Notes under the pieces: model-generated | What the model was told of the DNA's origin: nothing | The model's input: the letters and a program-made list of their open reading frames with translations, nothing else | The model's database searches: none | Shown: one piece after another, positions 2,321 to 33,394 of the stretch | Numbering within the stretch: position 1 is the stretch's first letter | How the letters are laid out: each line of letters starts with the position of its first letter | Source of the DNA: an uncultured Gammaproteobacteria bacterium | Lineage (GTDB): Bacteria > Patescibacteriota > Patescibacteriia > Magasanikbacterales > UBA922 | Assembly (NCBI GenBank): GCA_964496615.1 | Contig: CAZCAB010000002.1 | Span: 1-33,608, forward strand | Direction of reading: 5' to 3' | Length of the DNA: 33,608 bases | Program-made: the position numbers and the translations under genes

Positions 2321-2358
2321 CATGTGACCTCTCGTTTGTGAGGTCAATTAAAACCTGT

Positions 2359-7327: not shown

Positions 7328-7984
7328 TTAGCGCATTTTATGTACCAAAAGATCTCTTACAATCCTCACACCGCCAGAAATCCCCTGTCCGAATTGATCG
7401 TAACGTACTTTAACCGGAAATTCAATATGTGTGAGATTATGACGCGTTATCAATTGCAAAATCTCAGTCGCGTGAGCCATTCCATCTTGCTCGAGCGACA
7501 TCTTAGAAAGTGCTCGTGGACCCAAGATACGAAAACCATTATGTACATCAGATATGGCAGGTGCGCCAGAGAGCAGATTAACCAATCTCCCTATGGGAAA
7601 AAGGATGTGTTTTTTGAAAAATGGAATATCTGATCGTGAGTCTAGAAAACGCGAGCCTAAAAGGACATCTGCGCCAGATTCCTCCAGTGAGTTGAGCGCA
7701 TGTGGGATATCTGCCGAGTCGAACTGTCCGTCACCATCAAAATGAATAACGTATTTCGTATCAATACGACGTGCATGCTCATGTCCGGTCTGAAGCGCTG
7801 CTCCCTGCCCTCTGTTGATGACATGTGTAAGCACGCTCGCCCCTGCTTGCTTTGCGATATGAGATGTTCTATCCTGTGAGCCATCATCAATAACGACCAC
7901 TTGATCGACATGTTCAAAAAGGTCCCGGACAACGGAACCTATATTTTTTTCTTCGTTATATGCTGGAACAAGTGCTATGATCAT
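7328..7984 (-). CDS. GT2-family glycosyltransferase (polyprenyl-phosphate sugar synthase-like)
   Basis: 218 aa with PAYNEE, VVVIDDGSQDRT and DGDGQ (DxD) motifs. The start overlaps the upstream stop as ATGA (7981-7984). Confidence 0.85.
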   Translation of the reverse strand: MIIALVPAYNEEKNIGSVVRDLFEHVDQVVVIDDGSQDRTSHIAKQAGASVLTHVINRGQGAALQTGHEHARRIDTKYVIHFDGDGQFDSADIPHALNSLEESGADVLLGSRFLDSRSDIPFFKKHILFPIGRLVNLLSGAPAISDVHNGFRILGPRALSKMSLEQDGMAHATEILQLITRHNLTHIEFPVKVRYDQFGQGISGGVRIVRDLLVHKMR

Positions 7985-11042: not shown

Positions 11043-11100
11043 AATTTTGCTATCTTGTCTAGGCATAAGTATAGGCAAAAAAGCCTTTTTTTGCAATCAC

Positions 11101-14518: not shown

Positions 14519-14529
14519 ATCAATCACCA

Positions 14530-17216: not shown

Positions 17217-17293
17217 AGAAATATGTGCTACATACTCTATATGAAATAAGGCAATAAATCAAGCCATCACTGTGAGTAATTCTGCAGAAAAAC

Positions 17294-17322
17294 TTGACAA
17301 CAAAGGAAAAAAATGCAATCAT
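17294..17322 (+). promoter_or_regulatory. candidate promoter of the GC-rich gene
   Basis: TTGACA (17294-17299), 17-nt spacer ending in TGC (extended -10 like), AATCAT (17317-17322). A GGAGGA Shine-Dalgarno at 17350-17355 precedes the ATG at 17360. Confidence 0.35.
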
Positions 17323-17359
17323 GTTCTTGTATCGATCCACACCTATCTTGGAGGAAGCC

Positions 17360-18697
17360 ATGCGTCGAGTCATGACGATCACCTTTTTTGTTGTCTCGAT
17401 GCCTGGATGCGTCGAGAAATTCGAGCCTGCTGGCCAGTCCCTTGATGAGAACTCGGGTGACGAAGGCGGGCAGGAAGGCGACGAGGGAAACGCAGAACCC
17501 GATCCTGACGAAGGCGGGCAGGAAGGCGACGAGGGAAACGCAGAACCCGATCCTGACCCCGATCCTGACGAAGGCGGGCAGGAAGGCGACGAGGGAGAAG
17601 GTGAAGGGGAGGGCGAGGATGACCGCGTGATCAACTGCGGTGACGACAGTCACTGTGTCGACATCACGAACATCTGTTCGTGCGATGACGACAACAGCAT
17701 CTATTGCGAGCGTAAGACCGGCACGTGCACCGCAGGTCGCTGCGACCTTGAGCCGGTGCTCGTCAGTGCTTGCCCGTTTGGTTGCGATCACGAGCTCAAT
17801 CAATGCCGCCCCGCACCGTGTCCCGAAGGTGACACTTGCTGCGAAGGTGATGAGGAAGAGCCCCCATGTAACGGATGTCCCGAAGGGACAATCGTGCCCG
17901 AAGGCACGGTCTGCGTACCAGGAGGTGAATTCCGAATGGGTAGCCCAGAGGACGAAAATGGTCGGGACGGTGCGAACGAACGCCAGATCGCAGTCGCCCT
18001 CACCAACGCCTTACTGGTCGCGCGTACAGAAATCACGCAGTTCGAGTGGGAGCTCGTGATGGACCATCGCCCATCGTCACGGGAAGACTGTGACAACTGC
18101 CCGGTCGAGCAAATCGCCTGGGCTGACGTGGTCGCCTACGCCAATAGCCTCTCGACTCAGGATGAGCTGAATCCCTGCTATCTGAACGAAGATGGTGAGG
18201 TCTACGGCTCGCAAGACGCCGAGAATCGTCGAGCAGTGGTGTGGCAAAATGGGTATGATTGCGAAGGGTGGAGGCTCCCAACGGAAGCTGAGTGGGAGTA
18301 TGCCACACGGGCAGGAACAACCACACCCTGGTGGTGCGGTGAGGATCCTGAATGCCTCGAGCAAACCGAATGGTACCTGCGAAATGCCCAGAACGGATCT
18401 CATGAAGTCTGCCTCAAAGAGGAAAACGCATGGGGCCTGTGCGACACCGTCGGCAACGTCATCGAGTGGGTCTGGAACTGGTATGGACCTCATCCGGACT
18501 TGGAGGAGACACTCATCAATCCGCGAGGACCAGAAGGTGACGGGAACAACCCGAAGGTGTTTAAGGGGTGCGGTTACGTACTCCCGGCGGAATCATGTCG
18601 TAGCGCGAGTCGCCTGTCAGGTCGACCGTTCGAGGAGATCGCCCCCCACGTCGGCGCACGTCTCGTGAGGAAGGCATCGCAGATCGGCAATCTGTAG
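17360..18697 (+). CDS. putative lipoprotein with acidic repeat linker, Cys-rich region and FGE/SUMF1 (formylglycine-generating enzyme family) domain
   Basis: Signal plus lipobox-like MRRVMTITFFVVSMPGC. A DEGGQEGDEGNAEPDP repeat linker and many Cys residues follow. FGE-sulfatase signatures GGEFRMGS, WRLPTEAEWEYATRAGTTTPW and GNVIEWVWNWY are present. G+C is far above the flanks. A strong SD supports the ATG at 17360. Confidence 0.85.
   Translation: MRRVMTITFFVVSMPGCVEKFEPAGQSLDENSGDEGGQEGDEGNAEPDPDEGGQEGDEGNAEPDPDPDPDEGGQEGDEGEGEGEGEDDRVINCGDDSHCVDITNICSCDDDNSIYCERKTGTCTAGRCDLEPVLVSACPFGCDHELNQCRPAPCPEGDTCCEGDEEEPPCNGCPEGTIVPEGTVCVPGGEFRMGSPEDENGRDGANERQIAVALTNALLVARTEITQFEWELVMDHRPSSREDCDNCPVEQIAWADVVAYANSLSTQDELNPCYLNEDGEVYGSQDAENRRAVVWQNGYDCEGWRLPTEAEWEYATRAGTTTPWWCGEDPECLEQTEWYLRNAQNGSHEVCLKEENAWGLCDTVGNVIEWVWNWYGPHPDLEETLINPRGPEGDGNNPKVFKGCGYVLPAESCRSASRLSGRPFEEIAPHVGARLVRKASQIGNL
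17459..17596 (+). repeat. in-frame 48-bp tandem repeat: two perfect copies, a 12-bp spacer, then a 30-bp partial third copy
   Basis: 17459-17506 and 17507-17554 are identical (gacgaaggcgggcaggaaggcgacgagggaaacgcagaacccgatcct). 17555-17566 is gaccccgatcct. 17567-17596 repeats the first 30 nt. Confidence 0.92.
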
Positions 18698-18797
18698 GGT
18701 GCCTCTCCAAAAAAGCTCCACAAACCAACGAGGGTCAGGAGCGCCCTCATTCACCTGCGATATTGATATATAATAAATCGATGGTGCAGGAGAATAT

Positions 18798-18821
18798 AAA
18801 AAATCTCTGTTGAGATTTTTT
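18798..18821. terminator. bidirectional hairpin terminator between convergent genes
   Basis: AAAAAATCTC-TGTT-GAGATTTTTT lies between the FGE-like gene (+) and the end of the long minus-strand operon, overlapping the HAD stop codon by 2 nt. Confidence 0.5.
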
Positions 18822-19488
18822 ATATTTGTCTAATATTACTTGAAACTTTCAAAAATAGGTCAGAAAGCGAATCGACTATTACTTCTCTTTCTGAAATGAC
18901 TCCAGGTTGCCATTTGTTAAACTGATTCGCAAGACCAAAAAAAGGAATATTGCAAGATTGCGCTGCAAGCATATCACTCTCACCATCACCGACCATGCAC
19001 GCCCGTTCCCTGTCATATCCGTTCTCTAAAAGAATCAGGTTAATGACGTCAGTTTTTTTTCTCGGACTCCCATAGCATCCCTTAAAGAAATTTCGTATCT
19101 CAAGTCCATCAATAGTTTCCTGCACTTGCTCTTCAGGCGTGCCCGTGATTATGTACAAATCAGCATCATGTGAAATTTCCTTGAGGAGCTCTTGGACGCC
19201 CGGGTTGAGACCCCTGCTAAGTATCTGCCGCTGAATACAATCGTTGTATGCTTTCGCATAGTGTTCAACCGTACGATCAATATCGTCTTTACCTACACCG
19301 CAAGCAGTAAATGTTCGCTCCAATATCTCATAGCGAGATTTTTCTCTATGAGTAAAGAGTACATCGTCCATTGCACGATGTAACCTCTCATCATCTGCAG
19401 GGAGAATGTCAAAAAATGCATCAAATTTGAGTTGATTAGAATCAACTATAATACCATCAAAGTCGAAGAAGACAGACCGAGAAGGCAT
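18820..19488 (-). CDS. HAD-superfamily phosphatase (subfamily IA-like)
   Basis: Motif I FFDFDGIIVDS, motif II IITGT, motif IV MVGDGESD. It is the last gene of the operon, 6 nt after the NeuB-cupin gene. Confidence 0.8.
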   Translation of the reverse strand: MPSRSVFFDFDGIIVDSNQLKFDAFFDILPADDERLHRAMDDVLFTHREKSRYEILERTFTACGVGKDDIDRTVEHYAKAYNDCIQRQILSRGLNPGVQELLKEISHDADLYIITGTPEEQVQETIDGLEIRNFFKGCYGSPRKKTDVINLILLENGYDRERACMVGDGESDMLAAQSCNIPFFGLANQFNKWQPGVISEREVIVDSLSDLFLKVSSNIRQI

Positions 19489-19494
19489 ACTGGA

Positions 19495-21030
19495 CTACTC
19501 AAATTGATACCTACCCCAGTTGACCAGCTTTGTCTTTCTATCCTCCCGTTTCATGTTATTAATTGAATGATCCTCATATATTGAATCATTATTGTAGTGA
19601 GTTGTTGACACCTCCTCAAAAACAACACCCGTCTCTGTTGAGAATCCATGACGAACACCTCTTTGAACAAGTAAAGTATCCCCTGGATACAAACGGCGGA
19701 CACGACCTTCAATGTCAACATCAAGCTCTCCCCACAAAATTTGAAATGACTCTTCTTTCTTCTTGTGGTGGTGAGATGGATTCCGTTGTCCAGCCATTTG
19801 AACAAGTATTTTCTTACAATACTCACGATTGATACACGTAATGATCGCAACACCAGCTTCGTGAAAATTCTCAAGTCCATAATGATGCGATAGCTCGAGA
19901 TCAAAATCATACCCTACATGAATTTTTGCGATGTTAAGCATTCCTCGAATCTCGTGAATAGAATGATAGATAATTTCTGCATTCGTCTTCTTAAGACCTT
20001 TGAGTGCATCACTACTCACAGGATCATTCTTCTTGTATGATCTATCAGCTATATGTCCTGTGCTCCACTCCCCACTCGTCAGTTGACCCTCCTGAAGTGG
20101 AATTGAAAAGAAAACATCTTCATCTTGAATGACTTCTCCTGCTTGGATATCCTTTTTTACATAAACACCACGAAGTAATGTCTTAAGAGATGCCATCTCG
20201 CTCTCTGCGGCCGCAGGCCTTATATCACTCCCACAGGATTCTTTCGCTTCTTTATACGCTCGTATCCACTGCTCGAGTTGTTGTGGTGTTGAAGAATATG
20301 CATTTAGATTGATCTCACTTGTCGCTACGCCAACATGTCTTTCAAAAAGCTTTGCACCCTTTGCACACGCTATCTGAACTGCTGACATGTTATCCGGATG
20401 TTCATGAGTTGAAAATCCGATCGGCACATGATGATACCGTGCACGCAAATTATCTATCTGATTGAGCTGAAGCTGATCATGAGGTGTCGGATATATAGCA
20501 ATGCAGTGCATGAGTGCAAACTGCACATCCTTATGATCTAAAAAGCTTACCAACTTATCAATATCCTTGATCGACAGACCTCCAGTTGAGACAATCATCG
20601 GCTTACCTGTGGCTGCCGCCTTTTCTAAAAGGGGCCAATCGCGAGCAGAACAACTCCCAATCTTCAATATTTCAACACCGAGTTTCACAAGTGTATCAAC
20701 TGAATCCTCATCAAATGGTGTACTCATGGTAACTAATCCACGCGCGCGCGTATGCTCGACCAAGGCCTTAAATTCATCTTCGCTTAGGCGAGTCGAAAGA
20801 AAACGTTGTACATGCTTGACATCGTCCCTTTCTCTAAAATCAGGATGGATAAATGTATCCAAATTTCGAAATTGCAACTTAACAGCAGCCTGAACCCCCA
20901 TGTTCTTTGTTACTCCTCCGTGCTCATCAATTATCCTCTTACCATGCTCAACACTACCCTGATGGTTGTTAGCCATCTCGAGTATAAACAGGTCAGAGAA
21001 AATTGAATTGTCCTTGTTCTGAATCGCCAT
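19495..21030 (-). CDS. NeuB-family synthase fused to SAF and C-terminal cupin domains (511 aa)
   Basis: N-terminal ILEMANNHQGS...VKLQFR, then CIAIYP, GFSTHE and FERHVG NeuB motifs. A SAF-like VYVKKDIQAGEVI segment follows. The C-terminal cupin motif 1 fits G-x5-HxH-x4-E-x6-G (GQRNPSHHHKKKEESFQILWG, G codon at 19789-19791), and motif 2 is approximated by PGDTLLVQRGVRH. Confidence 0.8.
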   Translation of the reverse strand: MAIQNKDNSIFSDLFILEMANNHQGSVEHGKRIIDEHGGVTKNMGVQAAVKLQFRNLDTFIHPDFRERDDVKHVQRFLSTRLSEDEFKALVEHTRARGLVTMSTPFDEDSVDTLVKLGVEILKIGSCSARDWPLLEKAAATGKPMIVSTGGLSIKDIDKLVSFLDHKDVQFALMHCIAIYPTPHDQLQLNQIDNLRARYHHVPIGFSTHEHPDNMSAVQIACAKGAKLFERHVGVATSEINLNAYSSTPQQLEQWIRAYKEAKESCGSDIRPAAAESEMASLKTLLRGVYVKKDIQAGEVIQDEDVFFSIPLQEGQLTSGEWSTGHIADRSYKKNDPVSSDALKGLKKTNAEIIYHSIHEIRGMLNIAKIHVGYDFDLELSHHYGLENFHEAGVAIITCINREYCKKILVQMAGQRNPSHHHKKKEESFQILWGELDVDIEGRVRRLYPGDTLLVQRGVRHGFSTETGVVFEEVSTTHYNNDSIYEDHSINNMKREDRKTKLVNWGRYQFE

Positions 21031-21077
21031 AATTAAAGGGTGTGAATCAATGTGAGTAAAGAGTTAATACATCCTCC

Positions 21078-21815
21078 TCATTTAATCTTATGTTTCGTTA
21101 GGTATAGTTCGACAAGGTCAAAATCTATTGGCGTATCTATGTCGATACAATTTTCGCTCGGCATCTCAAAATATCCTATATCTTTACCAACCACCGTGTC
21201 AAATTGATCTATCGTCTTGGTGTATATCACATCAACAGCGCCATGCACATATGCTTTAGGCAATACTTGTCTTGGCATATCATACGGATGCTCAAAACCC
21301 GTAAATGATGGCGGAACTAATGATTCGATCCTTCCATCTTTTTCACTTTTTTTCCATGCTTTATACGGATGACTCGGGGCAGATGAAATAGATCTAACAC
21401 AATCGAGAATTGGGTCAGCAAGGAGTGTACAAATACCCTGATCAATATGTTCTGAAGTCCTCAACGGGAATGTGGGAGCCAATCGCAACACGACGTCGGG
21501 ATGATATTGCTGATTCTGATCAAGCCACGTGAGCGCGTGCTTTATGAACTCAATATCAGTTGAATCGTCCTGTGCTAGTTCTGCAGGCCGCAAGAAAGGT
21601 ACATCAGCGCCATGTTGCCTGGCTACATCCGCTATCTCTTCATCATCTGTCGTCACAATAATGCGATCGATATGCTCAGATTTTTTTGCTGCATCGATAG
21701 TCCATGCAATAAGTGGTTTTCCTGCTATTGGCAATATGTTTTTTCTAGGAACGCCTTTAGAGCCACCGCGTGCTGGTATAATCGCCAGCACTTCGACATT
21801 GCTTTGAACAACCAT
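21078..21815 (-). CDS. acylneuraminate (nonulosonate) cytidylyltransferase, NeuA-like paralog 1
   Basis: CTP_transf_3 signature IIPARGGSKGVPRKNI...GKPLIAWTI. The track start at 21824 is TTG, so the ATG at 21815 is preferred. Confidence 0.87.
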   Translation of the reverse strand: MVVQSNVEVLAIIPARGGSKGVPRKNILPIAGKPLIAWTIDAAKKSEHIDRIIVTTDDEEIADVARQHGADVPFLRPAELAQDDSTDIEFIKHALTWLDQNQQYHPDVVLRLAPTFPLRTSEHIDQGICTLLADPILDCVRSISSAPSHPYKAWKKSEKDGRIESLVPPSFTGFEHPYDMPRQVLPKAYVHGAVDVIYTKTIDQFDTVVGKDIGYFEMPSENCIDIDTPIDFDLVELYLTKHKIK

Positions 21816-21825
21816 ATACAACAAA

Positions 21826-22173
21826 TTATCTAATGATCACGTCAACTACTGTATAATCTTGAGTAACTACTGGAATCATATGAACAGCAGAATTCTGTAA
21901 AAGAATTTCCTCTGCATCTTTTTTGTATTCATCTCCAGAAACAGCTATTGGATTACGATTCACAATTGACTCAATAGGTGAAAAAACTGTCTGACCTCTT
22001 ACCAATGCTCGTCGAATATCCCCGTCCGCAGCAACACCGATAAGTTCTGCTTTTTCACCAACTACAATTACAGCACCTCTATGGTTATCACTCATTGCAA
22101 TCATGGCGTCTTTTATCGTCGCGTTGCTATAGACGATATAATTTTTGTCTATCAATTCTTGTATGGAAGCCAT
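21826..22173 (-). CDS. stand-alone CBS-domain pair protein
   Basis: 115 aa. ATIKDAMIAM...GAVIVV...LIGVAADGDIRRAL is a typical CBS pattern. It is packed between neuC and a NeuA-like gene with 1-3 nt gaps. Confidence 0.75.
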   Translation of the reverse strand: MASIQELIDKNYIVYSNATIKDAMIAMSDNHRGAVIVVGEKAELIGVAADGDIRRALVRGQTVFSPIESIVNRNPIAVSGDEYKKDAEEILLQNSAVHMIPVVTQDYTVVDVIIR

Positions 22174-22176
22174 ATA

Positions 22177-23328
22177 CTAATATGTTATTTTTTTGACCAG
22201 TAAATCTTCGTCTATAGAAATATTACCAAGCACATCAACAATCCGACGTGATGAATTTCCGTCACCATACGGATTCTTGCAATTCTTTAGCTTCTCTTTA
22301 AACGAAGGATCCAACGCTTTTTGTATGGCATCCTGAATTTCCTCTCGCACACAACCTACATTTATCACGTTTTCCCCTTGCACTCTGCCATTTTGTCTGT
22401 TACCAATATTAACAACTGGCAATCCAAAGGTTGGTGCTTCGATAAGACCACTAGACGAATTACCCACCAACAGATCAACAACATTCATCAGTCCTGCATA
22501 ATCTTCACGAGGGATGTTAGGGTAAATTTTCATGTTTGACTTCCTGTGTTCTTGTATCTTTCTACGCACTATCCCGCTTCCTGCGTCTGAATTATTCAAA
22601 ATGATTGTAACTGTCCCATCAAACGAACAGACTGCGGACATTACCTCATCCATGTGCGTGTCAAGATCGCCAATTTCCTCAGTCGTGGAGTGATACACAA
22701 ACAGCATGTTCAGGCCATCTGGTTGCAAGCTATATTTGCGAATAATTTCATCTTGTGGTGTCATTCTTCCATTCACCAGTTCATCAAGCATCGGAGCTCC
22801 AACATTGTGCACGCGGTGTTCTTGTTCACCCATTTTGAGTAAACGTTGCGCAGCATCATCGTTAGCCGCAAAATGAATATGTGCATACTTTGTAATAGCA
22901 TGACGTGTGGTCCCGTCTATATTTCCGGATACCTCACCGGCCTGAATATGCGCAACCGGTATATACATATGTGCGCCAGCCATCGCAGCCACCATCTGCT
23001 CTCCGCGATCTCCAGATATAAGTATGAAATCAGCTCCCATCTGATTAATAATTTCCGGAAGCTGTAGCATAAATACTGCCAGAGATTTAACCATGGTTAT
23101 GTGATTGTACCCATCAATAGTATTGTGAACGGTTGCAGCAATTTTAAAATTATCTTTCTTGATCTGCTCAATACTTGCCCCAAAGGACTCAAGCAAGTGC
23201 ATATTGGTGACAACTATGGCGTAATCCATGTCTTCCCTTTTTTCGATCTCTTCAATGATCGGCCTAAAATAACCGTATTCTCCGCGAGACCCAGCTATGA
23301 TTGCCACTTTTCTTTTCTTTACTTCCAT
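22177..23328 (-). CDS. neuC: UDP-N-acetylglucosamine 2-epimerase, hydrolysing type (NeuC-like) paralog 1
   Basis: HIQAGEVSGNIDGTTRHAITKYAHIHF matches the hydrolysing NeuC pattern (H-x-x-G-E/D...D...RH.I.K..H.HF). 383 aa. Confidence 0.83.
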   Translation of the reverse strand: MEVKKRKVAIIAGSRGEYGYFRPIIEEIEKREDMDYAIVVTNMHLLESFGASIEQIKKDNFKIAATVHNTIDGYNHITMVKSLAVFMLQLPEIINQMGADFILISGDRGEQMVAAMAGAHMYIPVAHIQAGEVSGNIDGTTRHAITKYAHIHFAANDDAAQRLLKMGEQEHRVHNVGAPMLDELVNGRMTPQDEIIRKYSLQPDGLNMLFVYHSTTEEIGDLDTHMDEVMSAVCSFDGTVTIILNNSDAGSGIVRRKIQEHRKSNMKIYPNIPREDYAGLMNVVDLLVGNSSSGLIEAPTFGLPVVNIGNRQNGRVQGENVINVGCVREEIQDAIQKALDPSFKEKLKNCKNPYGDGNSSRRIVDVLGNISIDEDLLVKKITY

Positions 23329-23333
23329 ACCAT

Positions 23334-24392
23334 CTATGATTCGACATCAGACCATTGAACAATGGTGCTCACTTGCATATCTTTACTCGCCTTTTTACCC
23401 AAAAAAGAGCCACTATATCTTTCATCCAAGTACTTTGCAGGTATTCCTGTTCCTGGCCGACGAGGCTCAACATTATCGAGTGTAAACTCATCCCCTTGAG
23501 TTATCTGCTTCGAAGTTACCACGCTATGATGGGCCCAATCCCGCACTGTTTGCTCCTCAGCACTTATTTCTTTTTTACAACCAAGCGAAGCCTCAATTTT
23601 TGATACTCCCTCGACTAAATCCACTAAATCTGCCGGCTCCAAGGAAATAAAGTGATCAGGTCCTGATTGATCGCGTGACAGTGTAAAATGCTTTTCCACA
23701 CAAGCTGCACCCAAAGCCGTTGCAGCATACGCCGTGAAATTATCGATCGTGTGATCGGACAGACCTACAGGCACATCAAAAGTGCTCTTCATTTTCTCTA
23801 TCATGCCAAGATTGATGTGGCTGTAATCTTTTGGAGGATACTCGGAAACGCAGTACATGAGTACAAGATGATCTTTAGCGCCTACCTCTTCATAGATACT
23901 GACTGTTTCTGCTATTTCTTCAAAAGTTGACATCCCAGTTGATACAATGATGGTTTTACCAGAACTCTTTGCAATAGTTGCTAATTTCCTATGCATCGGT
24001 AAATGTGTAAGCTCTCCGGATCCAACTTTGTATCCTGCCACACCAATGTCTTCCAACACATCAATCGCTGCGGGACAAAAAGGAGTACAAAGATATTGAA
24101 TGCCGACCTGCTCACAATAGTCTTTTATTTCTCTATGCATTTCAGGAGTGAACAAATTTTTCTTGAGAATATCATATAGTGGTCCATCCCACATCTGAAT
24201 TGACCCTGGCACCATTTCAACATCTGGAAGATGGAGCTGAAATTTGGCAACATGTGCGCCCGCTTTTTTAGCCTCATCCACCATTCGTTTTGCCGTCTGC
24301 ATGTCCCCATTATGAGAATCTGCTATCTCCACAATGATAGCTGTTGGTGCATCAGATCCTATTGATATATTTCCTAATTGACGAGTATGCAT
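23334..24392 (-). CDS. neuB: N-acylneuraminate (nonulosonate) synthase, canonical-length NeuB with SAF domain
   Basis: IIVEIADSHNGDMQTAKRMVDEAKKAGAHVAKFQ, YCVSEYP, GLSDHT and VEKHFTL motifs, plus C-terminal SAF (VVTSKQITQGDEF). Confidence 0.88.
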   Translation of the reverse strand: MHTRQLGNISIGSDAPTAIIVEIADSHNGDMQTAKRMVDEAKKAGAHVAKFQLHLPDVEMVPGSIQMWDGPLYDILKKNLFTPEMHREIKDYCEQVGIQYLCTPFCPAAIDVLEDIGVAGYKVGSGELTHLPMHRKLATIAKSSGKTIIVSTGMSTFEEIAETVSIYEEVGAKDHLVLMYCVSEYPPKDYSHINLGMIEKMKSTFDVPVGLSDHTIDNFTAYAATALGAACVEKHFTLSRDQSGPDHFISLEPADLVDLVEGVSKIEASLGCKKEISAEEQTVRDWAHHSVVTSKQITQGDEFTLDNVEPRRPGTGIPAKYLDERYSGSFLGKKASKDMQVSTIVQWSDVES

Positions 24393-24393
24393 A

Positions 24394-25113
24394 TTATTTT
24401 TTCTGAATGATTTCCTTCATTATAAGCTCTGCATAATCAAAATCTCTTTGCGTATCGATATCAAGGGCATACACACTATCCATCTCGTATCCATAGGTAT
24501 TCTCACCCCAGAGCGTCTTAGTACTATACATGCTACTAACTTTAAATGCATAAATTGCTGAATTGATATAGTATGATTCAGACACATCTTGATTTCTGTG
24601 TTTCATATCCTTCACCTGAGCCCCATCAATGACTCTCGTGAGCATATGCGATGTATCAATTTTCAACTGCTTGTATACACTGTATTTTGGATCAACAAGC
24701 GAGACACCAACAACAGAATCAATACCATCATGGTTTTGTATGATTTGTGCGACATCCTGAATGTGATTCACTTGTCTACCTGGGCATGAAGGCTCCAGAA
24801 GGACAACCCAATCAGGGTCATAATTATCATGCTCTTTAAGCCAAGTAACTGCGTGAAATATGGGATCAAAAGAAGATGATGTATCAGTCGCATATTCAGG
24901 TGGGCGCATGAACGGAACTTCGAGACCACAATCTAGACCAACTTGAGCAATCTGCTCATCGTCTGTTGAAAGTATGAATCGATCCAGCACGTTACTTTCT
25001 AGACCAACAGATGCTGTCCAAGCAAGAAGTGGTTTACCCAAAAACGACCTGATATTCTTTCCCGGCAGTCTTTTTGACCCTCCTCGTGCTGTTACGATTC
25101 CTAGGATATTCAT
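24394..25113 (-). CDS. neuA: acylneuraminate cytidylyltransferase, NeuA-like paralog 2
   Basis: IVTARGGSKRLPGKNI...GKPLLAWT. The track start at 25119 is TTG, so the ATG at 25113 (MNILGIV) is preferred. Confidence 0.85.
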   Translation of the reverse strand: MNILGIVTARGGSKRLPGKNIRSFLGKPLLAWTASVGLESNVLDRFILSTDDEQIAQVGLDCGLEVPFMRPPEYATDTSSSFDPIFHAVTWLKEHDNYDPDWVVLLEPSCPGRQVNHIQDVAQIIQNHDGIDSVVGVSLVDPKYSVYKQLKIDTSHMLTRVIDGAQVKDMKHRNQDVSESYYINSAIYAFKVSSMYSTKTLWGENTYGYEMDSVYALDIDTQRDFDYAELIMKEIIQKK

Positions 25114-25156
25114 GAACAATATGTCGATATATAATACAATAAAGTATCAAGAAGTG

Positions 25157-25309
25157 TCAACTAGTGCCATTTCTCTGATTTGCCTTATTGTAAACTATGT
25201 CAAACATTCGTTTTCCTGACTGCCCATCAATCATATAACAAAACTGTTCAATGAGTTTTTGTCTGTTCGCCTTGTCGACATTTGGATTATAAATATATGT
25301 ATCAATCGC
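25157..25309 (-). other. out-of-frame C-terminal continuation (50 codons plus stop) of the upstream GT-B-like gene
   Basis: Hand translation of the -1 frame gives AIDTYIYNPNVDKANRQKLIEQFCYMIDGQSGKRMFDIVYNKANQRNGTS*, a typical glycosyltransferase C-terminal helix region with no start codon of its own. It joins the 25302..26552 frame if the A8 tract loses one A. Confidence 0.6.
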
Positions 25310-26552
25310 TTTTTTTTAGCTGTTCTTCACTTTCAACAACCTGTGCAGCCTTCACAGAAAGAATCTCCGTGAAATAATCAGTCAAATACCACCGCTTAAC
25401 ACTTCTATGAAAAGGTTTTGGAGTGGGTCCATCAAAGTTAATTAAAATCACAGGCTTACCCATAGCAGCACCATCTAATGTTAAAGTTGAACACGTATTG
25501 ATAACAACATCTGAGTGATACAGAGAATTCAAAAAATGATTCATTTGCTTATCTGAGTAATCCCATCTGTCTCTAAAATTGCTTGACGGATTATTTTGTC
25601 GATCAACAACGACATTTGGTCGATCGAAATAGTCCTTGAACTTAAGGTGATCATCCTTGTGTGCAAAGTGCGGTCTAATGAGGAGTTGCGCAGGTTGTTT
25701 GAATGCATCCTGGTCAATGAGATCTGCAATGACACCAGCCACATCTGGATCAGTAGGAACGTACTTACCTTCAGACCCAAAGAAGATAATTTTTTTATTT
25801 GGATCAAGACCAAGCGAGGCACAAAAATCTTCTCGAGATTCGATCAGGGCGTTATCGCTGTAATAATCAAACTGTGGAACACCGGTAATAGCTATCTGTG
25901 ACGGATGGTAATCCTGCAATGTCTGCATCTGCTTTTTCATGAAGTGACTCCACACGACTACCGTGTCAGCCTTCGCCCTAAAGTAGAGCTTTGAAGGATT
26001 ATCCCATGACTTCGGCATAGCTACGGATGGCACCTTGAGCCTGCGTGCTGCCTTAAGTAGCGCGGATTCGCTATCCTCACCCATGCTCGTTGAAAAAATC
26101 ACAGATGGCTCATGAGCTAGTATCATTGACGTGTATTGACGCACCATGTCCTTTTGCAATAAAAGGTAATCAAGCCATCGCAAGAACTTTCTCACAAATT
26201 GCACTTTTGAAAGTGGATAAAAAAGTGATTTTATGACAACATATTTTACTTTCGAAGGAGGCTCCAAAGAATCCCCGACCGTATCATACCGGATCAACTT
26301 TTCCGTTGTTTTATTGTAGATAATATATTTGTTCACCTTATGAATGAGCAGACGTAGCAGTGTGTTTTCTGATGGTAACATTGGAAGAAAAGTCACATTC
26401 TCCGCTCCAAATTCAGAGATGAATCTTTCATCATTATTTGCGGGGGTAACGATGAAAACCTGGTCAAAGTTCTTCTTCAATTCTTTAAAAAAAGTATTCT
26501 TGAGAAGATTTCTGGCAGTACCGCCGCGAGATATGGTGATCATTACATTCAT
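25302..26552 (-). CDS. unassigned GT-B-like / capsule-type transferase candidate (416 aa as called, probably C-terminally truncated by frameshift)
   Basis: Two Rossmann-like halves (MNVMITISRGGTARNLL... and DVVINTCSTLTLDGAAMGKPVILINF) resemble TagF/capsule-synthesis-type GT-B proteins. No specific CAZy-family motif recognised. The start overlaps the upstream stop as ATGA (26549-26552). Confidence 0.5.
   Translation of the reverse strand: MNVMITISRGGTARNLLKNTFFKELKKNFDQVFIVTPANNDERFISEFGAENVTFLPMLPSENTLLRLLIHKVNKYIIYNKTTEKLIRYDTVGDSLEPPSKVKYVVIKSLFYPLSKVQFVRKFLRWLDYLLLQKDMVRQYTSMILAHEPSVIFSTSMGEDSESALLKAARRLKVPSVAMPKSWDNPSKLYFRAKADTVVVWSHFMKKQMQTLQDYHPSQIAITGVPQFDYYSDNALIESREDFCASLGLDPNKKIIFFGSEGKYVPTDPDVAGVIADLIDQDAFKQPAQLLIRPHFAHKDDHLKFKDYFDRPNVVVDRQNNPSSNFRDRWDYSDKQMNHFLNSLYHSDVVINTCSTLTLDGAAMGKPVILINFDGPTPKPFHRSVKRWYLTDYFTEILSVKAAQVVESEEQLKKSD
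25310..25317 (-). repeat. A8 (T8 on plus strand) homopolymer at the frameshift point
   Basis: Counted directly: ...cgc tttttttt agc... The current frame reads CTA AAA AAA AGC GAT TGA. Confidence 0.9.
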
Positions 26553-27511
26553 ATACTCTGACTAGTTTTATAAAAGCTCTCGATCTTCTGCGCAATAAAC
26601 ATATCTGTCTTCTCTCGAGATTCATGGGTCACCCCACCAATATGAGGAACGATAATACAGTTGTCGCTTTTTTGCGCGTATGCAATAAGCGGGTGAGAGA
26701 CATTCTCCGTATCAAACGATAGTTCTCCTGACAGAACATCAGCCGCATAGCCAGCGATTAATCCTTCTTCTAGAGCATTGAGCAGATCTTTTTCATTTAC
26801 GATTTCGCCGCGAGATGTGTTGATAAGATAGGCGCTCTTCTTCATGCGACCAAACGAGTCAGCATTAATCATTGCGCGCGTCTCATCATTTAGATGGACA
26901 TGTATCGATATGATATCACTGTTTTTAAGCAGGTCCCGAAAATCTGACCGCATCTCACCATGTTGAGGTGCATTCTCTACATATGGATCATATACTATTA
27001 CTTTCATGTCAAAGGCTCGAGCATATCTTGCCATCATTTTCCCCAACCGACCATGTCCGATAAGACCTAACGTTTTACCCTGTAATGTGTGCCCTCTAAA
27101 ATTCTCACGCTTCCAGTTTTCTTTCTTTACTGAAAAAAAGCTGTGACTCATCTTTCTCATGATATCGATCATGAGGCCCCATGCAAGTTCGGCAGTGCCA
27201 GTTATAGTATCCAAAAATTCAGTCTCGCCTCGCAGACTCAAAATGGCAACCCCCTTATCTTGTGCAGCATCCATGTCTATATGATCGAGTCCTGTCGTTG
27301 GCGTCGCAAGCACCTGTAGCTGACTCGCGCTATCAAAAACGTCTTTATCAAAAGTTACACCAAGAGATGTGATGATAGCATGATAATGCGCGACTTGCTG
27401 CTTCAACTGCTCCTGAGTCATATCCGCATAATCAACAGATCCAATTTTATCAAGTATCTTCTTGGCAGAATCTGTAAAGTTGGGGACCAAATTGAGGATG
27501 CGAATAGACAT
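26549..27511 (-). CDS. D-isomer-specific 2-hydroxyacid dehydrogenase (SerA/glycerate dehydrogenase-like)
   Basis: GKTLGLIGHGRLGKMMA NAD-binding motif, NTSRG, and the catalytic PHIGGVTHES context. Confidence 0.85.
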   Translation of the reverse strand: MSIRILNLVPNFTDSAKKILDKIGSVDYADMTQEQLKQQVAHYHAIITSLGVTFDKDVFDSASQLQVLATPTTGLDHIDMDAAQDKGVAILSLRGETEFLDTITGTAELAWGLMIDIMRKMSHSFFSVKKENWKRENFRGHTLQGKTLGLIGHGRLGKMMARYARAFDMKVIVYDPYVENAPQHGEMRSDFRDLLKNSDIISIHVHLNDETRAMINADSFGRMKKSAYLINTSRGEIVNEKDLLNALEEGLIAGYAADVLSGELSFDTENVSHPLIAYAQKSDNCIIVPHIGGVTHESREKTDMFIAQKIESFYKTSQSI

Positions 27512-27514
27512 ACT

Positions 27515-28237
27515 CTAATTATTTTCATTACGCTTCAACAAAAAAGAAGCAAACTCAAAATCGATCGGCTCGTTTATATCCACTGATCGATCCTCTGGCA
27601 TAACATACGCACGAGAATCCGCCCCAAAAATATCACCTTCCATAACCAGATCAGTGCGAGTCAGATATATAGCACAGTTTCTTTTATATATAGGCTCTGC
27701 ATCCTGCCTCCGAGCTGATGCGGTACCTTCATTACTCACAGCAGATGTAATAACGCCATTTTCAATATATTTAAGTTTGGCCAGTGACATGTCAGTCAAC
27801 TCATACATACTCATCACCGAATCTGCGCCCGAATCCACAATCATTTCTATGCAAGCATCAATATCTTCACTTGTTCTCAATGGCGAAGTGGGCTGCAGAA
27901 CCATGACATAATCATATGAGATATCATCTAAATCAGCGAGTGATGTTACTGCATGCTGCATAAACTCTATTGCTGTGCTCCTATCCTGCGAAATTTCATC
28001 TGGCCTCATAAACGGAACTTCAGCTCCAGCCGCTCGCGATAATTCGGCTATTTGCACATCATCCGTGGAAACTATGCATCTGGTTAAGAAAGCGCTTTTT
28101 TGAGCGGCCTCTATCGTCCAATATATGAGAGGTTTACCAAGAAGCGGCCTAATATTTTTTTGGGCAATACCTTTAGAACCACCGCGAGCCGGGATGATAC
28201 CAAGGACCTTTTTGTTTTTGTACATTCCAGAATTCAT
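27515..28237 (-). CDS. acylneuraminate cytidylyltransferase, NeuA-like paralog 3
   Basis: IIPARGGSKGIAQKNI...GKPLIYWTI. The track ORF extends into the upstream gene, so the first ATG after that gene's stop (28237) is used. 28225 is an alternative. Confidence 0.85.
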   Translation of the reverse strand: MNSGMYKNKKVLGIIPARGGSKGIAQKNIRPLLGKPLIYWTIEAAQKSAFLTRCIVSTDDVQIAELSRAAGAEVPFMRPDEISQDRSTAIEFMQHAVTSLADLDDISYDYVMVLQPTSPLRTSEDIDACIEMIVDSGADSVMSMYELTDMSLAKLKYIENGVITSAVSNEGTASARRQDAEPIYKRNCAIYLTRTDLVMEGDIFGADSRAYVMPEDRSVDINEPIDFEFASFLLKRNENN

Positions 28238-28244
28238 ACTGCGA

Positions 28245-29978
28245 TTACAACTGGTATTTTGCTCCAATACCCAAGCCATCATAGTGAACATGGTCGATTG
28301 ATTGAAAATCAAAATCCACGAAAATAGCCCATCCATCAAATAGCAAGCTCGGTCGCGCAAGTGTCTTCACTAATGAATAAATTCCTAGATCATAAAAAGA
28401 ATGATGGTTATTAAGAACCACAACACAGTCTGCATTCATGAATCCATTTTCAACCGATGTTGGGGTCACATCAAGTGTCTGTAACTCTTCATCAGCGACA
28501 ACAGGATCATGGACATATATGTTCTTATATTCTTTTTGTATCTCCTGCATGATTTCAACTCCAGTGGACGATCGCAAATCAGAAGTTTCAGGTTGTCCCT
28601 TAAAGGCAAGTCCCATTATGAAGATTTTAGGGTCTGTCACACCTCGTTTATGAGTACGCAGAAAAGTAATTACTTTTTGGGCAACAAATGAAATCATGCT
28701 CTCATTTATATCACGACCAACGATCGGTAGCTTAGGTGTGTACGATATAGACTCGGATGATTTCATAAAGATGAAGGGATCCTTAGTAAGACATGCCCCG
28801 CCCACACCCGGGCTTGGTACTGGAATATTGTTTCGGGGATACCCCAAATTTGCGGCCTCAATAACCTCATACGTATTGAGTGAAAAGCCATCCATAACTT
28901 GTGATAATTCGTTGGAATATGCGAATGTTAAATCCCTGTACGTGTTATTCACGAGCTTTACAGCTTCTGCAGCCTCCAGCGTACTTACCATGCGGATCGA
29001 TCTCACAAATTCTTTAAAGAGATTAGCAGCTAAGTCTGAACTTGCTTTGTCATATCCACCAATTACTTGAGGAATGCTACGTATCTCTTGAAGCGCCACC
29101 CCTTCGGCTGTACGCTCCGGCGCAAATGCAACAAAGAAATCTCTGCCCGCTTTGTAATCGGTTTCTCTCTCAAGAATCGGAATAACAAAGTTTCGACATG
29201 TACCAATTGGTACTGTCGAACGCAAGACAATCAGATCATTTGGTTTGAGTATCTTTGAGATAACCTTTAGCGAGCTTTCCAAATATTGCATTTGGACTGT
29301 ATTTGTATCATCGACAGGAGTTCCAACACATATGATGTAAACATCACTTACACCCTCTTGAAATTCACTCGTAACAATAAATCTGTTATCAATATGGCGT
29401 TGCAGTAATTCATCAAGACCCTTTTCAAAAAAATGTGATTTTCCGGTGCGCAGCTGCGCAACCACGGACTCCTTAATATCAACGCCAATAACCTCAAAAC
29501 CGACTTCCGCCAAGGTGAGTGCAAGCGTGAGACCCACGTAACCTAATCCGATGACTCCAACACGGCGAGTTTTAACCTCACTCATCTTCCATAGCTCAAA
29601 AAAAGAGTACACATCAGTTGGTCTTCTTTGATCATCCACCAAGATCACTTTATCAATTGCATTGTATGGAATATTTCGTGCACGTATCTGTTCAAATACA
29701 CGTGGTAGCATGTTATGGACAGGCACATCGGATTCGATCGTGATTGGATCTGTTGTCATTATCTCGCCCACAGAAACATCGAGGTTAAATCCACTTAATA
29801 GTGCTCGACGAATATCGCCATCAGTAACAACACCTTCAAGTATGCTATTGCTATCAACAACAAGTACTATTCCGTGCAGCACCTCTGAATCACCGCCCAC
29901 ACCATGAGTTATCATACTCATGACTTCCTTTATTGTGGCATGTCGATTTGTTTGTAGATGATTGTTTCTGATCTTCAT
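28245..29978 (-). CDS. CBS-pair fused to a UDP-sugar 6-dehydrogenase (WecC/UDP-ManNAc dehydrogenase-like)
   Basis: N-terminal approx 130 aa carry CBS motifs (ATIKEVMSM...GIVLVVD...LEGVVTDGDIRRALL). These are followed by VGVIGLGYVGLTLALTLAE Rossmann and GVGGACLTKDP catalytic Cys motifs. Confidence 0.8.
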   Translation of the reverse strand: MKIRNNHLQTNRHATIKEVMSMITHGVGGDSEVLHGIVLVVDSNSILEGVVTDGDIRRALLSGFNLDVSVGEIMTTDPITIESDVPVHNMLPRVFEQIRARNIPYNAIDKVILVDDQRRPTDVYSFFELWKMSEVKTRRVGVIGLGYVGLTLALTLAEVGFEVIGVDIKESVVAQLRTGKSHFFEKGLDELLQRHIDNRFIVTSEFQEGVSDVYIICVGTPVDDTNTVQMQYLESSLKVISKILKPNDLIVLRSTVPIGTCRNFVIPILERETDYKAGRDFFVAFAPERTAEGVALQEIRSIPQVIGGYDKASSDLAANLFKEFVRSIRMVSTLEAAEAVKLVNNTYRDLTFAYSNELSQVMDGFSLNTYEVIEAANLGYPRNNIPVPSPGVGGACLTKDPFIFMKSSESISYTPKLPIVGRDINESMISFVAQKVITFLRTHKRGVTDPKIFIMGLAFKGQPETSDLRSSTGVEIMQEIQKEYKNIYVHDPVVADEELQTLDVTPTSVENGFMNADCVVVLNNHHSFYDLGIYSLVKTLARPSLLFDGWAIFVDFDFQSIDHVHYDGLGIGAKYQL

Positions 29979-29998
29979 ATAAGTGGCTTCTTCAAGAT

Positions 29999-31150
29999 TT
30001 AATCACAAAATCTCTTTTGTGTGTAAAGAGGGAGAGTTGCTAATAGATGTGCAATCTGGCTACTCGTACCGGGCTTATAGTACATATCACTCTGAGCATA
30101 GCATCCACGGCGAAGTTGAGTTTCAATTGCATCTTGTATCCGTGTTGCATCATATTCAGCATCAATAATGTGCTCTCCTCGCATGCGACCTGACTGTCTG
30201 GTACCAATATTTACAACTGGTGTACCAAAATATGAAGCTTCCTTTATCCCTGCAGATGAATTACCGACAAGACAAGCTGCGTTCTTAAGCAAGTACGCAA
30301 AATGCCCTGGCTCAATATGCTTGATAAAACGTATTTGATGAGTATCCTGCTCCTCTCTGAAGACACGCAACGCTTTACTCACCTCGTCAGTCCCCGCATC
30401 CACATTTGGCCAAAACCAAATTGCTGGTGTATTACTTTTGCTAACAGCGTCCAATGTTTGTTCAGTGTTAAACCTGTTATCACCTATCTCACTCGTAACA
30501 GGATGTTGCACAACCATGAGATACGGCTGGGTAAGATCAATCTCGCTACCAACCCCAGTCGTATTAATTAATTCTCGTGAGACGTCCTTAGTCTCTTTTG
30601 CAATAAATTCAATCCCAGGACAACCAACATTAAAGACATACTCAGGCTGTTCCCCCATACGGATCAAACGGTCCTTAGATACATTATTGGTTGGGAAATG
30701 AATATGCGCTAACTTAGAAATCGCATGACGAACACTCTCGTCAATCGTGCCGGTCACATCTCCCCCTTCAATATGTGCTACCGGAATATTAAGGTATGCA
30801 GCAGACACGGCCGCAGACAAAACTTCATACCTATCCCCTCTCACGACGACAACATCTGGCTTAATATTGTCAAAAGCAGTTGCAAATTCGGCTATTCCAA
30901 TACCTGTAGTTTTAGCCATTGCCACAGCAGAACCACCTTCAAGTGTCATGGTAATCTTTGCACTACAGGTAAAGCCATCCTTCTCAATGAGCGTTAATAC
31001 ATCCCCATAATTAGGTAAGATAGCAGAGGCTCCAACGATAATACTCAGATCTAGAGCATCATTTTTCTTTATTTCGTCTAAAATAAGTTTGCTCCGAGCA
31101 TAATGAATTTTGGAGGTGATGATAAACGCAATTTTTCTTTTCTTTGACAT
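29999..31150 (-). CDS. UDP-N-acetylglucosamine 2-epimerase, hydrolysing type (NeuC-like) paralog 2
   Basis: HIEGGDVTGTIDESVRHAISKLAHIHF. 383 aa and strongly diverged from paralog 1. Confidence 0.8.
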   Translation of the reverse strand: MSKKRKIAFIITSKIHYARSKLILDEIKKNDALDLSIIVGASAILPNYGDVLTLIEKDGFTCSAKITMTLEGGSAVAMAKTTGIGIAEFATAFDNIKPDVVVVRGDRYEVLSAAVSAAYLNIPVAHIEGGDVTGTIDESVRHAISKLAHIHFPTNNVSKDRLIRMGEQPEYVFNVGCPGIEFIAKETKDVSRELINTTGVGSEIDLTQPYLMVVQHPVTSEIGDNRFNTEQTLDAVSKSNTPAIWFWPNVDAGTDEVSKALRVFREEQDTHQIRFIKHIEPGHFAYLLKNAACLVGNSSAGIKEASYFGTPVVNIGTRQSGRMRGEHIIDAEYDATRIQDAIETQLRRGCYAQSDMYYKPGTSSQIAHLLATLPLYTQKRFCD

Positions 31151-31158
31151 AAATAAGG

Positions 31159-32250
31159 TTAATGGGGGTTTGGTCTGTCCTGATCACTATCCCCTTTTGT
31201 TAGGAACCAATTTGCTGGATTATGAAATGCATCTTGATTAATCTGAGTATCTTGATTCCATACCGCATAGTTAATGTAGTTCTTTGAATATGAAATCGGA
31301 TTGAAAAATAATGGTAGATCTTTATATACCGTTTTGTATACATCTACAAAACCAAGTGATTCAAGCGTGCTTTTATACATGAACCCTGAAAACATAAATT
31401 CAAGCATGTCCACTTCAAGCGATCCAAGCTCATTCATACAAACGAGCAATATCTCCTGCTCGGCATGCTCATACGCAATAAAATCTATCATACGCGCAAC
31501 TCGATACTCTTCCACAGCCTCAATGCGATAGATGACGTATCCAACGATTATTCCTTGGCTATCCCGCGCGACAAGTATTTTATAATCTAAGTATGGATGA
31601 TCAACATAGCGCCACTTTAAATAAGCATATGAACGCTCCACAGTATTTTGATAGCGCGCCTTAACTTGTGACCAAAATTCATCTATCTGACTATCAAACT
31701 CGGTGCTATAAACATACTCTTTCGAAGATGACTGTAGCGGAGGAACATCTCCTGCGACCATATCTTTTGCCTGGGCTTTTTTCGGCAACAAACTGTTCAC
31801 TTTTTCTGCATTATATATGTATACAAAACGATTGAAATTGCCCATGTTATGCCAATCTCCAAGCTTTTCATATATTGAAAAACTGTCAGGATTAAAACCT
31901 TCTATAAAAGCAATATCAGAACGATTCATCGCTGCTTTGATCAGAAGAGCGCCGGCACCAAACGCCCGGAGACGCTCATCAACATACAAATTGACGTAAT
32001 TACAAACAAGTCGAGAATCGCCCGAAATAGTATATGGCATAGGTATCAAACCAACTGATCCATATATAGTATCTGCTTCTTTGAGAATATAAAACTCATA
32101 ATCTTCTGCATACGGATTCGCGGCGAATTGCCAATCAAAAAATACTGGATCGCTCAAGATGTACTTGTCATGAAAATGTGTACGCGCGAATGCCTGGTAC
32201 AGTGGATAATCTGCTTTAGTCAGCTTTTGTACATTTTTCATTCCAATCAT
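31159..32250 (-). CDS. two-lobed GNAT/FemAB-like (Acetyltransf_6-like) acyltransferase candidate
   Basis: 363 aa. GNAT motif-A-like RLRAFGAGALLIKAA sits in the first half, and YLKWRY with a second alpha/beta lobe in the second. The assignment is by weak pattern only. Confidence 0.4.
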   Translation of the reverse strand: MIGMKNVQKLTKADYPLYQAFARTHFHDKYILSDPVFFDWQFAANPYAEDYEFYILKEADTIYGSVGLIPMPYTISGDSRLVCNYVNLYVDERLRAFGAGALLIKAAMNRSDIAFIEGFNPDSFSIYEKLGDWHNMGNFNRFVYIYNAEKVNSLLPKKAQAKDMVAGDVPPLQSSSKEYVYSTEFDSQIDEFWSQVKARYQNTVERSYAYLKWRYVDHPYLDYKILVARDSQGIIVGYVIYRIEAVEEYRVARMIDFIAYEHAEQEILLVCMNELGSLEVDMLEFMFSGFMYKSTLESLGFVDVYKTVYKDLPLFFNPISYSKNYINYAVWNQDTQINQDAFHNPANWFLTKGDSDQDRPNPH

Positions 32251-32255
32251 ATCTT

Positions 32256-32960
32256 TTATAAATGGCTCCCGCCGGTTACGTGCATATTCTCACCTGTTAT
32301 AAACTCTGCCTCATCTGATGCTAGGAAAAGAACTGCATTTGCAACATCAATAGGCCTCGTGGTTCTCCCCAGTGGTGTGCCATGGACAACAACTTCTGTG
32401 AGCTTCTCAGGAAATACACTCGAAAAATCGTTTGAAACTAAACCAGGCGAAACTGCATTGACTGTAATCCCAAATCTACCAAGCTCCTTTGCCATACAGC
32501 GAGTTAACCCCAGGAGCGCATATTTTGCAGCAACATAATCAGCGACATACGATGGTGTCTCATTTTCTGCATACGTGGTCAGAACATTTATTATGCGTCC
32601 ATATCTTTTTTCCTTCATGCTCGGAAGAAGTTGAGGCAGTACTTCCACCGCGGCCTTGAGCTGCACATTCATCTGCGCTTCAAAATCAGACCATATCTTC
32701 GATCCGATCGGTCCAATTTTAAGAGGAGCGCTTAGTGCATTAACTAATATATCTATCCCATCTGACTGGGACAAAACTGTATCCATGAGCTGACTCAATT
32801 GACCTGAATCACGTACGTCCGCAGCGTATGGCTGCTGTGATCTGCTATGCGAGAAGACTTCAGCGCCAGATCGTTCAAACTGTGAAACCACTTCGGATCC
32901 AATGTCCCCATCGCCACCCAGAACAAGGACCTTCTTGCTTTCGAAATCTATATTTTTCAT
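32256..32960 (-). CDS. short-chain dehydrogenase/reductase (FabG/3-oxoacyl reductase-like)
   Basis: VLGGDGDIGSEVV cofactor motif and the YVAAKYALLGL (YxxxK) catalytic motif. The start overlaps the MaoC stop as ATGA (32957-32960). Confidence 0.85.
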   Translation of the reverse strand: MKNIDFESKKVLVLGGDGDIGSEVVSQFERSGAEVFSHSRSQQPYAADVRDSGQLSQLMDTVLSQSDGIDILVNALSAPLKIGPIGSKIWSDFEAQMNVQLKAAVEVLPQLLPSMKEKRYGRIINVLTTYAENETPSYVADYVAAKYALLGLTRCMAKELGRFGITVNAVSPGLVSNDFSSVFPEKLTEVVVHGTPLGRTTRPIDVANAVLFLASDEAEFITGENMHVTGGSHL

Positions 32961-33394
32961 ATGTCTCTAACTTTTACACGTGCACAGCCGTCTACTGACA
33001 ATTCACCATTTGATCCTAATACTTGTGTACGCAATTCAACCATATTTAGTGCTTCCACTGTGTTTATGACCTCTGCTCTCACGTGTACCGTACTATCAAC
33101 TAAAACAGGTTGGCGATACTGAGTATCTTGTGATATATACAGACTCCTCTCCCCTGGACACATCATGCCGATTATCTGAGAAAAGAATGCGCTGAGTAAA
33201 GCCCCGTGCACAACTCGAAATCCAAATTCCGAATTGGTCGCATATGCTTCATCCACGTGTAGTGGATTATAATCACCAGTCAATGCGGCGAACGCGTCTA
33301 CCATCTCTTCAGTTATATGCTGTGTAAACTCAAACACATCCCCAACGGTTATCTGATCAAAACGTAATGTCTGAGCTTTTTCCTTAACTTGCAT
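32957..33394 (-). CDS. MaoC-like hotdog-fold (R)-specific enoyl-thioester hydratase/dehydratase
   Basis: 145 aa with the GDYNPLHVDEAYA hydratase motif and VVHGALL. Confidence 0.85.
   Translation of the reverse strand: MQVKEKAQTLRFDQITVGDVFEFTQHITEEMVDAFAALTGDYNPLHVDEAYATNSEFGFRVVHGALLSAFFSQIIGMMCPGERSLYISQDTQYRQPVLVDSTVHVRAEVINTVEALNMVELRTQVLGSNGELSVDGCARVKVRDI

Follow-up and report, generated by a model that had tools for sequence, protein, structure and literature searches.

In the 33,608-nucleotide contig CAZCAB010000002.1 (assembly GCA_964496615.1; hereafter the window), a predicted surface-glycan transferase gene that lies among genes for nonulosonic acid (NulO) biosynthesis is broken by a frameshift near its 3' end. 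As assembled, a single extra A in a run of eight A's removes the last 50 residues of the otherwise intact transferase gene. We find that these 50 residues, encoded in another frame directly downstream, are beyond reasonable doubt real coding sequence and the true C-terminus of the protein. The correct model treats 25157-26552 (minus strand) as a single frameshifted gene of 464 aa, not as a 416-aa protein plus a spacer. The type of event is textbook, an ordinary homopolymer slippage frameshift in a surface-glycan gene. For the extra A itself, our preferred reading is that it is truly present in the DNA of the sampled population. We assign this a probability of about 0.5, a figure that includes the small share allowed for habitual switching at the tract.

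The open reading frame (ORF) as assembled spans 25302-26552 on the minus strand and encodes 416 aa, ending ...EEQLKKSD* (K413-K414-S-D-stop, TGA at 25302-25304). Its end runs through the A8 homopolymer (T8 on the plus strand, 25310-25317), which is made up of CTA AAA AAA plus one A. The premature stop follows two codons past the run, where the message would read CUA AAA AAA AGC GAU UGA. From the G at 25309, a different frame stays open for 50 codons (25160-25309, minus strand; A415-S464) up to a TGA at 25157-25159: AIDTYIYNPNVDKANRQKLIEQFCYMIDGQSGKRMFDIVYNKANQRNGTS. Translation of the edited sequence gave 464 aa after removal of one A (A7) and 465 aa after addition of two (A10), as against 416 aa for A8; a change in tract length thus toggles the reading frame of the transferase gene. 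In the in-frame A7 state the tract encodes Leu-Lys-Lys-Ala, and the whole interrupted gene, including its stop at 25157-25159, covers 25157-26552. The gap to the downstream gene, ~182-188 nt as assembled, is reduced to 37-43 nt once the frame is restored. The original prediction of this frameshift, made from the sequence alone, had the ORF end and the A8 run at exactly these coordinates. It had also given the repair rule (lose one A or gain two) and had expected an anomalous gap of ~180 bp to shrink to ~40 bp, all of which held up. Its 50 open codons are likewise present, but the label "-1" that it gave them is incorrect: the tail lies in the +1 frame, reached by skipping one base.

That the tail reads as a genuine transferase C-terminus, as had also been proposed, is borne out by comparison with other members of the family. 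A database search returned 311 homologues; among the matches listed, almost all have lengths of 449-483 aa, with coverage of 96-100% of the 464-aa query. In the same search the 416-aa product, as assembled, was a singleton. Matches to family models run across the break. Residues 193-454 of the fused protein correspond to positions 133-366 of the 367 in the Pfam profile PF04464, and residues 139-454 to positions 38-361 of the 365 in the NCBIfam model NF046086. An alignment of 30 sequences needs no gaps in the tail, which contributes two of the 28 invariant residues (G443 and R448) as well as the near-invariant C438, D442 and G446. There is no alignment gap at the tract either, where L-K-K-A-I-D matches the consensus ELxxAIN, identifying A7 as the in-frame state. 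When scored against a profile of 29 homologues, the tail alone reached 40.7 bits, compared with 3.7 bits for the best of 200 shuffled tails, and the fused protein reached 677.8 bits, compared with 622.4 bits for the truncated form.

We then compared the gene with 32 homologues from species-representative genome assemblies, nearly all from Patescibacteria. All 32 are intact single-frame genes with no more than five A's at the aligned tract site, and neither among these loci nor among the matches listed does a homologue end at the position of the premature stop. The original prediction had named a short form shared by orthologues as part of a finding that would speak against it; this comparison revealed none. 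The tail also shows no decay. Its tail-to-body identity ratio is 0.78, against 0.886 +/- 0.082 in intact members (rank 5 of 30), so that its divergence is no greater than theirs. This argues that the break is recent, reversible or not real. An old pseudogene was considered and rejected, since the tail-to-body conservation ratio falls inside the range of intact members.

The gene encodes a TagB/TagF-like GT-B transferase, and the family to which it belongs is largely confined to Patescibacteria. It scores 35.3 bits against PF04464 (CDP-glycerol glycerophosphotransferase, TagB/TagF-like), above the gathering cut-off of 22.1 bits, whereas the TarF and TarL equivalog models yielded only E ~1e-4. 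Its score against NF046086, the BFO_1060 family, is 69.4 bits, far under the family cut-off of 200 bits. All 30 aligned family members match this model (best E 3e-19) over nearly the full length of the model, and all remain below its threshold. Judged by these profile scores, the window protein is a distant relative of the BFO_1060 family and not a member of it. The motifs that are invariant in its own family (PKSWDN, GxPQFD, SEGK, RPH, FxDxWDYS, STLxLD and FCYxxDGxSGxR) are all present in the alignment, the last of them within the tail, and the protein is at best ~50% identical to other members. From genomic context and distant homology, it is a probable transferase of cytidine monophosphate (CMP)-activated NulO, and, among relatives of the TagB-like NulO transferases, a new and uncharacterised one.

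An AlphaFold2 model, built with the 30-sequence alignment as input, was of high confidence (predicted local distance difference test, pLDDT, 93.9; predicted template modelling score 0.92) and has the two Rossmann domains of a GT-B fold. In this model the tail supplies the latter half of helix 409-421 as well as helices 427-437 and 445-462. Over these helices pLDDT is 95-98 (residues 411-460), falling to 53 only in the last four residues, 461-464. A Foldseek search of the Protein Data Bank (PDB) with this model returned only GT-B proteins. The top matches were UDP-N-acetylglucosamine 2-epimerases, MurG, MshA and MGD1 (E down to 1.5e-13, template modelling scores 0.5-0.7), generic GT-B relatives without a specific sialyltransferase or TagF match, and a family-profile search of PDB sequences found no meaningful match to a solved structure. 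The C-terminal helices of GT-B enzymes normally fold back to pack against the N-terminal domain. Loss of these helices together with an invariant motif would be expected to leave the truncated protein inactive or destabilised.

We propose the following course of events for a real allele. The Lys-Lys homopolymer would have expanded by one base, from A7 to A8, through a recent error of slipped-strand replication at a mutational hot spot of the ordinary kind; in bacteria, measurements show A6/A7 tracts to be hot spots for indels (PMC2831843). The resulting allele would lack the last 50 residues, and with them family-invariant positions and two and a half helices at the C-terminal end. Conservation and the structural model suggest that its product would be inactive or unstable, and the allele OFF. 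Genomic context and distant homology in turn suggest that the intact enzyme would place a CMP-activated nonulosonic acid, made by the products of the adjacent genes, onto a surface glycan. The same slippage could in principle reverse the allele, but would not amount to a specially evolved switch.

The alternative that competes most closely with a real allele is a sequencing or assembly artefact: the organism's gene would be intact at 464 aa with A7, and the eighth A would come from a miscalled homopolymer or from an assembly bubble that was resolved wrongly. We regard this as a serious contender, although at somewhat less than even odds. The break coincides with a homopolymer that is among the window's eight longest, the source is a singleton metagenome contig, and the undecayed tail, the intact pathway neighbours and the 32 intact homologues are all as expected from a miscall. 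Against it stands the state of the remainder of the window: the 38 other A/T runs of at least seven (seven A8/T8 and 31 A7/T7) all keep the frame or lie between genes, and no other gene is broken, each having its domains covered in full. Thus, the assembly is not generally bad at homopolymers, and an error pattern of the long-read type is unlikely. Consensus errors at 8-mers are also uncommon in short-read assemblies. An error-prone assembly with many frameshifts was considered separately and found no support, with the other genes full-domain and an apparent gap of ~350 bp filled by a 115-aa CBS ORF.

Several points nonetheless weigh against our preference for a real allele. A single homopolymer miscall would look exactly the same, and an artefact would account equally well for the perfect preservation of the tail and for the intact pathway genes next to it. 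The tract length is known from one sequence, and the nearest homologue is only ~50% identical. No near-identical sequence was found: exact-protein look-ups of the 416-aa product and of the neighbouring NeuB were empty, a metagenome scan with six peptides of the transferase gave no match, and neither did an exact DNA pattern spanning the tract with its length left free between 6 and 11. Finally, the OFF state of the truncated form is a prediction from conservation and the model.

A special case of a real allele is an evolved contingency locus, in which the tract would be retained because A7/A8 slippage at the 3' end of the transferase gene switches terminal NulO capping on the surface glycan between on and off, at high frequency, within a population of this episymbiont of the Patescibacteria (candidate phyla radiation, CPR), perhaps helped by weak mismatch repair. 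We consider this unlikely. The idea draws on the toggling of the frame by tract length and on the nature of the gene, since surface-glycan transferases are a classic kind of phase-variable gene; Cj1295, in pseudaminic acid (Pse) modification, is a reported example (PMC3068675). Short tracts can moreover vary reversibly, as with A6/A7 in Listeria inlA (PMC2831843). Some CPR lineages lack MutS and MutL, while others have mismatch repair (PMC8406219); its absence would raise slippage rates.

The tract itself, however, is not special: it is at chance level, unconserved and 3'-placed. The original prediction had itself cautioned that the tract alone was nothing special, pointing to runs at 6454-6461, 9711-9718, 13986-13993 and 19053-19060. 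These are indeed present and in frame, and further A8/T8 runs lie at 12130, at 14395 and, between genes, at 2175. The window total of eight compares with 4.29 +/- 3.03 in dinucleotide shuffles, of which 17 of 100 reach 8. Within coding sequences, synonymous-codon shuffling gave an expectation of 6.3 8-mers against the seven observed, whereas exact A/T 7-mers are in excess (28 against 15.7 +/- 3.4, with 0 of 300 shuffles reaching 28). There is no A/T run of nine or more in the window. The tract is simply the minimum given by Leu(CTA)-Lys(AAA)-Lys(AAA), plus one base, and no homologue (n = 32) has more than five A's at the site; neither enrichment nor conservation was thus found for a contingency locus. 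Its position also argues against one: the tract falls at codons 412-414 of 464, or 89% of the restored gene, while inactivating poly-A tracts tend to lie near the 5' ends of genes (PMC2831843). Rates point the same way. In Listeria inlA, A6-to-A7 changes occur at ~5.5e-7 and A7-to-A6 changes at ~3.9e-8 (PMC2831843). These measured indel rates of ~1e-7 to 1e-8, from an ordinary bacterium, are well under those of classic phase variation, unless mismatch repair is missing.

Recoding, programmed or adventitious, would let the A8 allele still yield the full-length protein through transcriptional slippage or +1 ribosomal frameshifting. A/T runs are a known substrate of RNA-polymerase slippage, with a frequency that rises exponentially with run length (PMC5574713), and frameshifted genes rescued by slippage are known, tssM being a reported example (PMC4256274). 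In this case, however, the RNA would have to lose one nucleotide or gain two, while slippage at A/T runs produces mostly single insertions and only rare deletions, and no error of transcription brought a reading frame back in the same study (PMC5574713). Nor is there a stop or rare codon next to the run that could drive a +1 shift. All 32 homologues lack the tract, and each is in a single frame; on this ground a conserved recoding site was rejected. We therefore hold recoding to be very improbable. A genuine short form, with a functional 416-aa protein and 150 nt of non-coding spacer downstream, has nothing in its favour beyond the ORF as called and is excluded by the significant homology of the tail to the family C-terminus, by a Pfam domain that itself extends to residue 454, and by 32 full-length homologues, none ending at this position.

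If the A8 allele is real, the sampled population would carry a switched-off copy of the one TagB-like transferase in an unusually rich NulO locus. This would hint at surface-glycan variation with a possible role in attachment to the host, or in escape from phage, in a lineage of episymbionts. If phase switching were true, this would be the first phase-variable surface-glycan gene described in the Patescibacteria radiation; our search of the literature turned up no paper that connects Patescibacteria with nonulosonic acids or with phase variation. The practical value of the analysis lies in annotation, in the corrected 464-aa gene model.

The transferase gene sits in a tightly arranged set of NulO genes, all on the minus strand. 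Upstream, a D-2-hydroxyacid dehydrogenase gene (26549-27511) overlaps the transferase start with its stop by 4 nt (ATGA), which places the two genes in one operon. Downstream follow a CMP-nonulosonate synthetase-like gene (24394-25113; PseF-like, E 2.3e-42), with a likely ATG at 25113 and a TTG-extended ORF to 25119, then a NeuB-like synthase (23334-24392) and a NeuC-like hydrolysing 2-epimerase (22177-23328), which complete a transferase / CMP-synthetase / NeuB / NeuC block. Of the 32 homologue loci, 24 have NulO genes no more than 6 kb away. One of these loci (L001) is syntenic, with the transferase, CMP-synthetase, NeuB and NeuC genes in this order, at 54-64% identity (values of 54%, 64% and 64%). 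Its transferase has the same C-terminal residues as a protein from Magasanikbacteria (P0003). This locus and others (L002, L008, L010 and more) come from third-party records of metagenome-assembled genomes (MAGs) that have this Patescibacteria-type gene and context under the titles "uncultured Gammaproteobacteria" or "Saccharibacteria". In view of the C-terminal residues shared by L001 and P0003, these MAG labels look unreliable.

In the former gap, the only promoter-like match is a strong sigma-70-like one (TTGACA, an 18-nt spacer and TATTAT; 11/12) at 25131-25160 on the minus strand. It straddles the restored transferase stop, 18 nt upstream of the ATG of the CMP-synthetase gene, and may act as an internal promoter; over the region as a whole, the number of such promoter-like sites is at the level of chance. 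No Rfam family was found in the former gap.

The wider NulO locus is unusually rich and occupies one strand (13406-33394, minus). It contains three NeuB paralogues (13406-14542, 19495-21030 and 23334-24392), two NeuC-like epimerases (22177-23328 and 29999-31150), three CMP-NulO-synthetase-like genes (21078-21824, 24394-25119 and 27515-28360) and three UDP-sugar dehydrogenases. This multiplicity suggests that the contig, probably a Patescibacteria one, encodes more than a single NulO pathway. The claim that the frameshifted gene is the only candidate transferase holds for the NulO block at 18.8-33.4 kb but not for the window, which elsewhere encodes a GT4 (5793-7010), a GT2 (7328-7984) and a Bac_transf priming transferase (11047-12489).

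Some of the neighbouring genes recur beside homologues of the transferase. The NeuB paralogue at 19495-21030 (minus) encodes 511 aa, in which the NeuB domain is followed by a fused cupin domain at the C-terminus. A homologue of 51% identity, with the same CMP-synthetase and HAD neighbours, adjoins a transferase homologue in a Kaiserbacteria chromosome (L029, 10033-11532). At 28245-29978 (minus) lies a UDP-N-acetylmannosamine-dehydrogenase-like enzyme with an N-terminal CBS domain; homologues of 42-44% identity stand beside the transferase family in four other loci (L005, L009, L017 and L023). The 115-aa CBS ORF mentioned above is a separate CBS-pair ORF at 21826-22173, within the apparent gap at 21825-22176. 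The cluster's upstream end (31159-33394, minus) carries genes of the GNAT-like, SDR and MaoC-dehydratase types. They recur together near a transferase homologue on an Uhrbacteria contig (L020, 11089-13118), and this set hints at acyl modification of the sugar.

Outside these subjects, a plus-strand gene at 17294-18697 interrupts the otherwise minus-strand glycan cluster. Its product combines a C-terminal FGE-sulfatase (formylglycine-generating-enzyme-like) domain with ~200 unannotated N-terminal residues. Two tRNA genes are found on the plus strand (2249-2320 and 3545-3618). A GTG-started ORF of 377 aa without a Pfam match (2263-3396) begins inside the first tRNA gene, so its true start must be further downstream.

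The switched glycan genes of Campylobacter, Neisseria and Haemophilus (e.g., Cj1295, in flagellin Pse modification) offer an analogy to the window gene, in that the length of a homopolymer in a glycan-modification gene sets the frame. Their tracts, however, are mostly poly-G/C of at least 8, recur across strains and have observed length variation, whereas the window tract, known from one sequence, is a minimal poly-A that sits at the 3' end and is missing in relatives. A likeness is also found in the 5' A7/A6 tract of inlA in Listeria monocytogenes (Orsi et al. 2010, PMC2831843), also a short poly-A of Lys codons in which a single-A indel truncates a surface-related protein and can be reversed. 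The pattern reported in that study for coding genes, with 7-mers in excess and longer runs not, matches the window as well. The inlA tract differs in lying at codon 3-8, with polymorphism in many isolates, as opposed to codons 412-414 of 464 in one sequence.

As for the enzyme, TagB, TagF and TarF (PF04464) share the GT-B fold with the window protein, and the Pfam match extends to the end of the profile, including the C-terminal motif lost by the frameshift. Unlike theirs, the window gene sits among genes for NulO biosynthesis rather than teichoic acid. The same setting is seen in Tannerella forsythia, where Tanf_01245 / TFUB4_00887 (BFO_1060 family) are TagB-like GT-B proteins encoded with NulO biosynthesis genes, and knock-outs lose the terminal NulO, a pseudaminic or legionaminic acid derivative, from the O-glycan (PMC5420450). 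The window protein, in contrast, belongs to a separate, largely Patescibacteria family (69 bits against the cut-off of 200), and its donor and acceptor are only putative. This Patescibacteria family travels with NulO genes and is distant kin of the only genetically supported TagB-like NulO transferases, which makes it a reasonable target for finding new NulO transferases.

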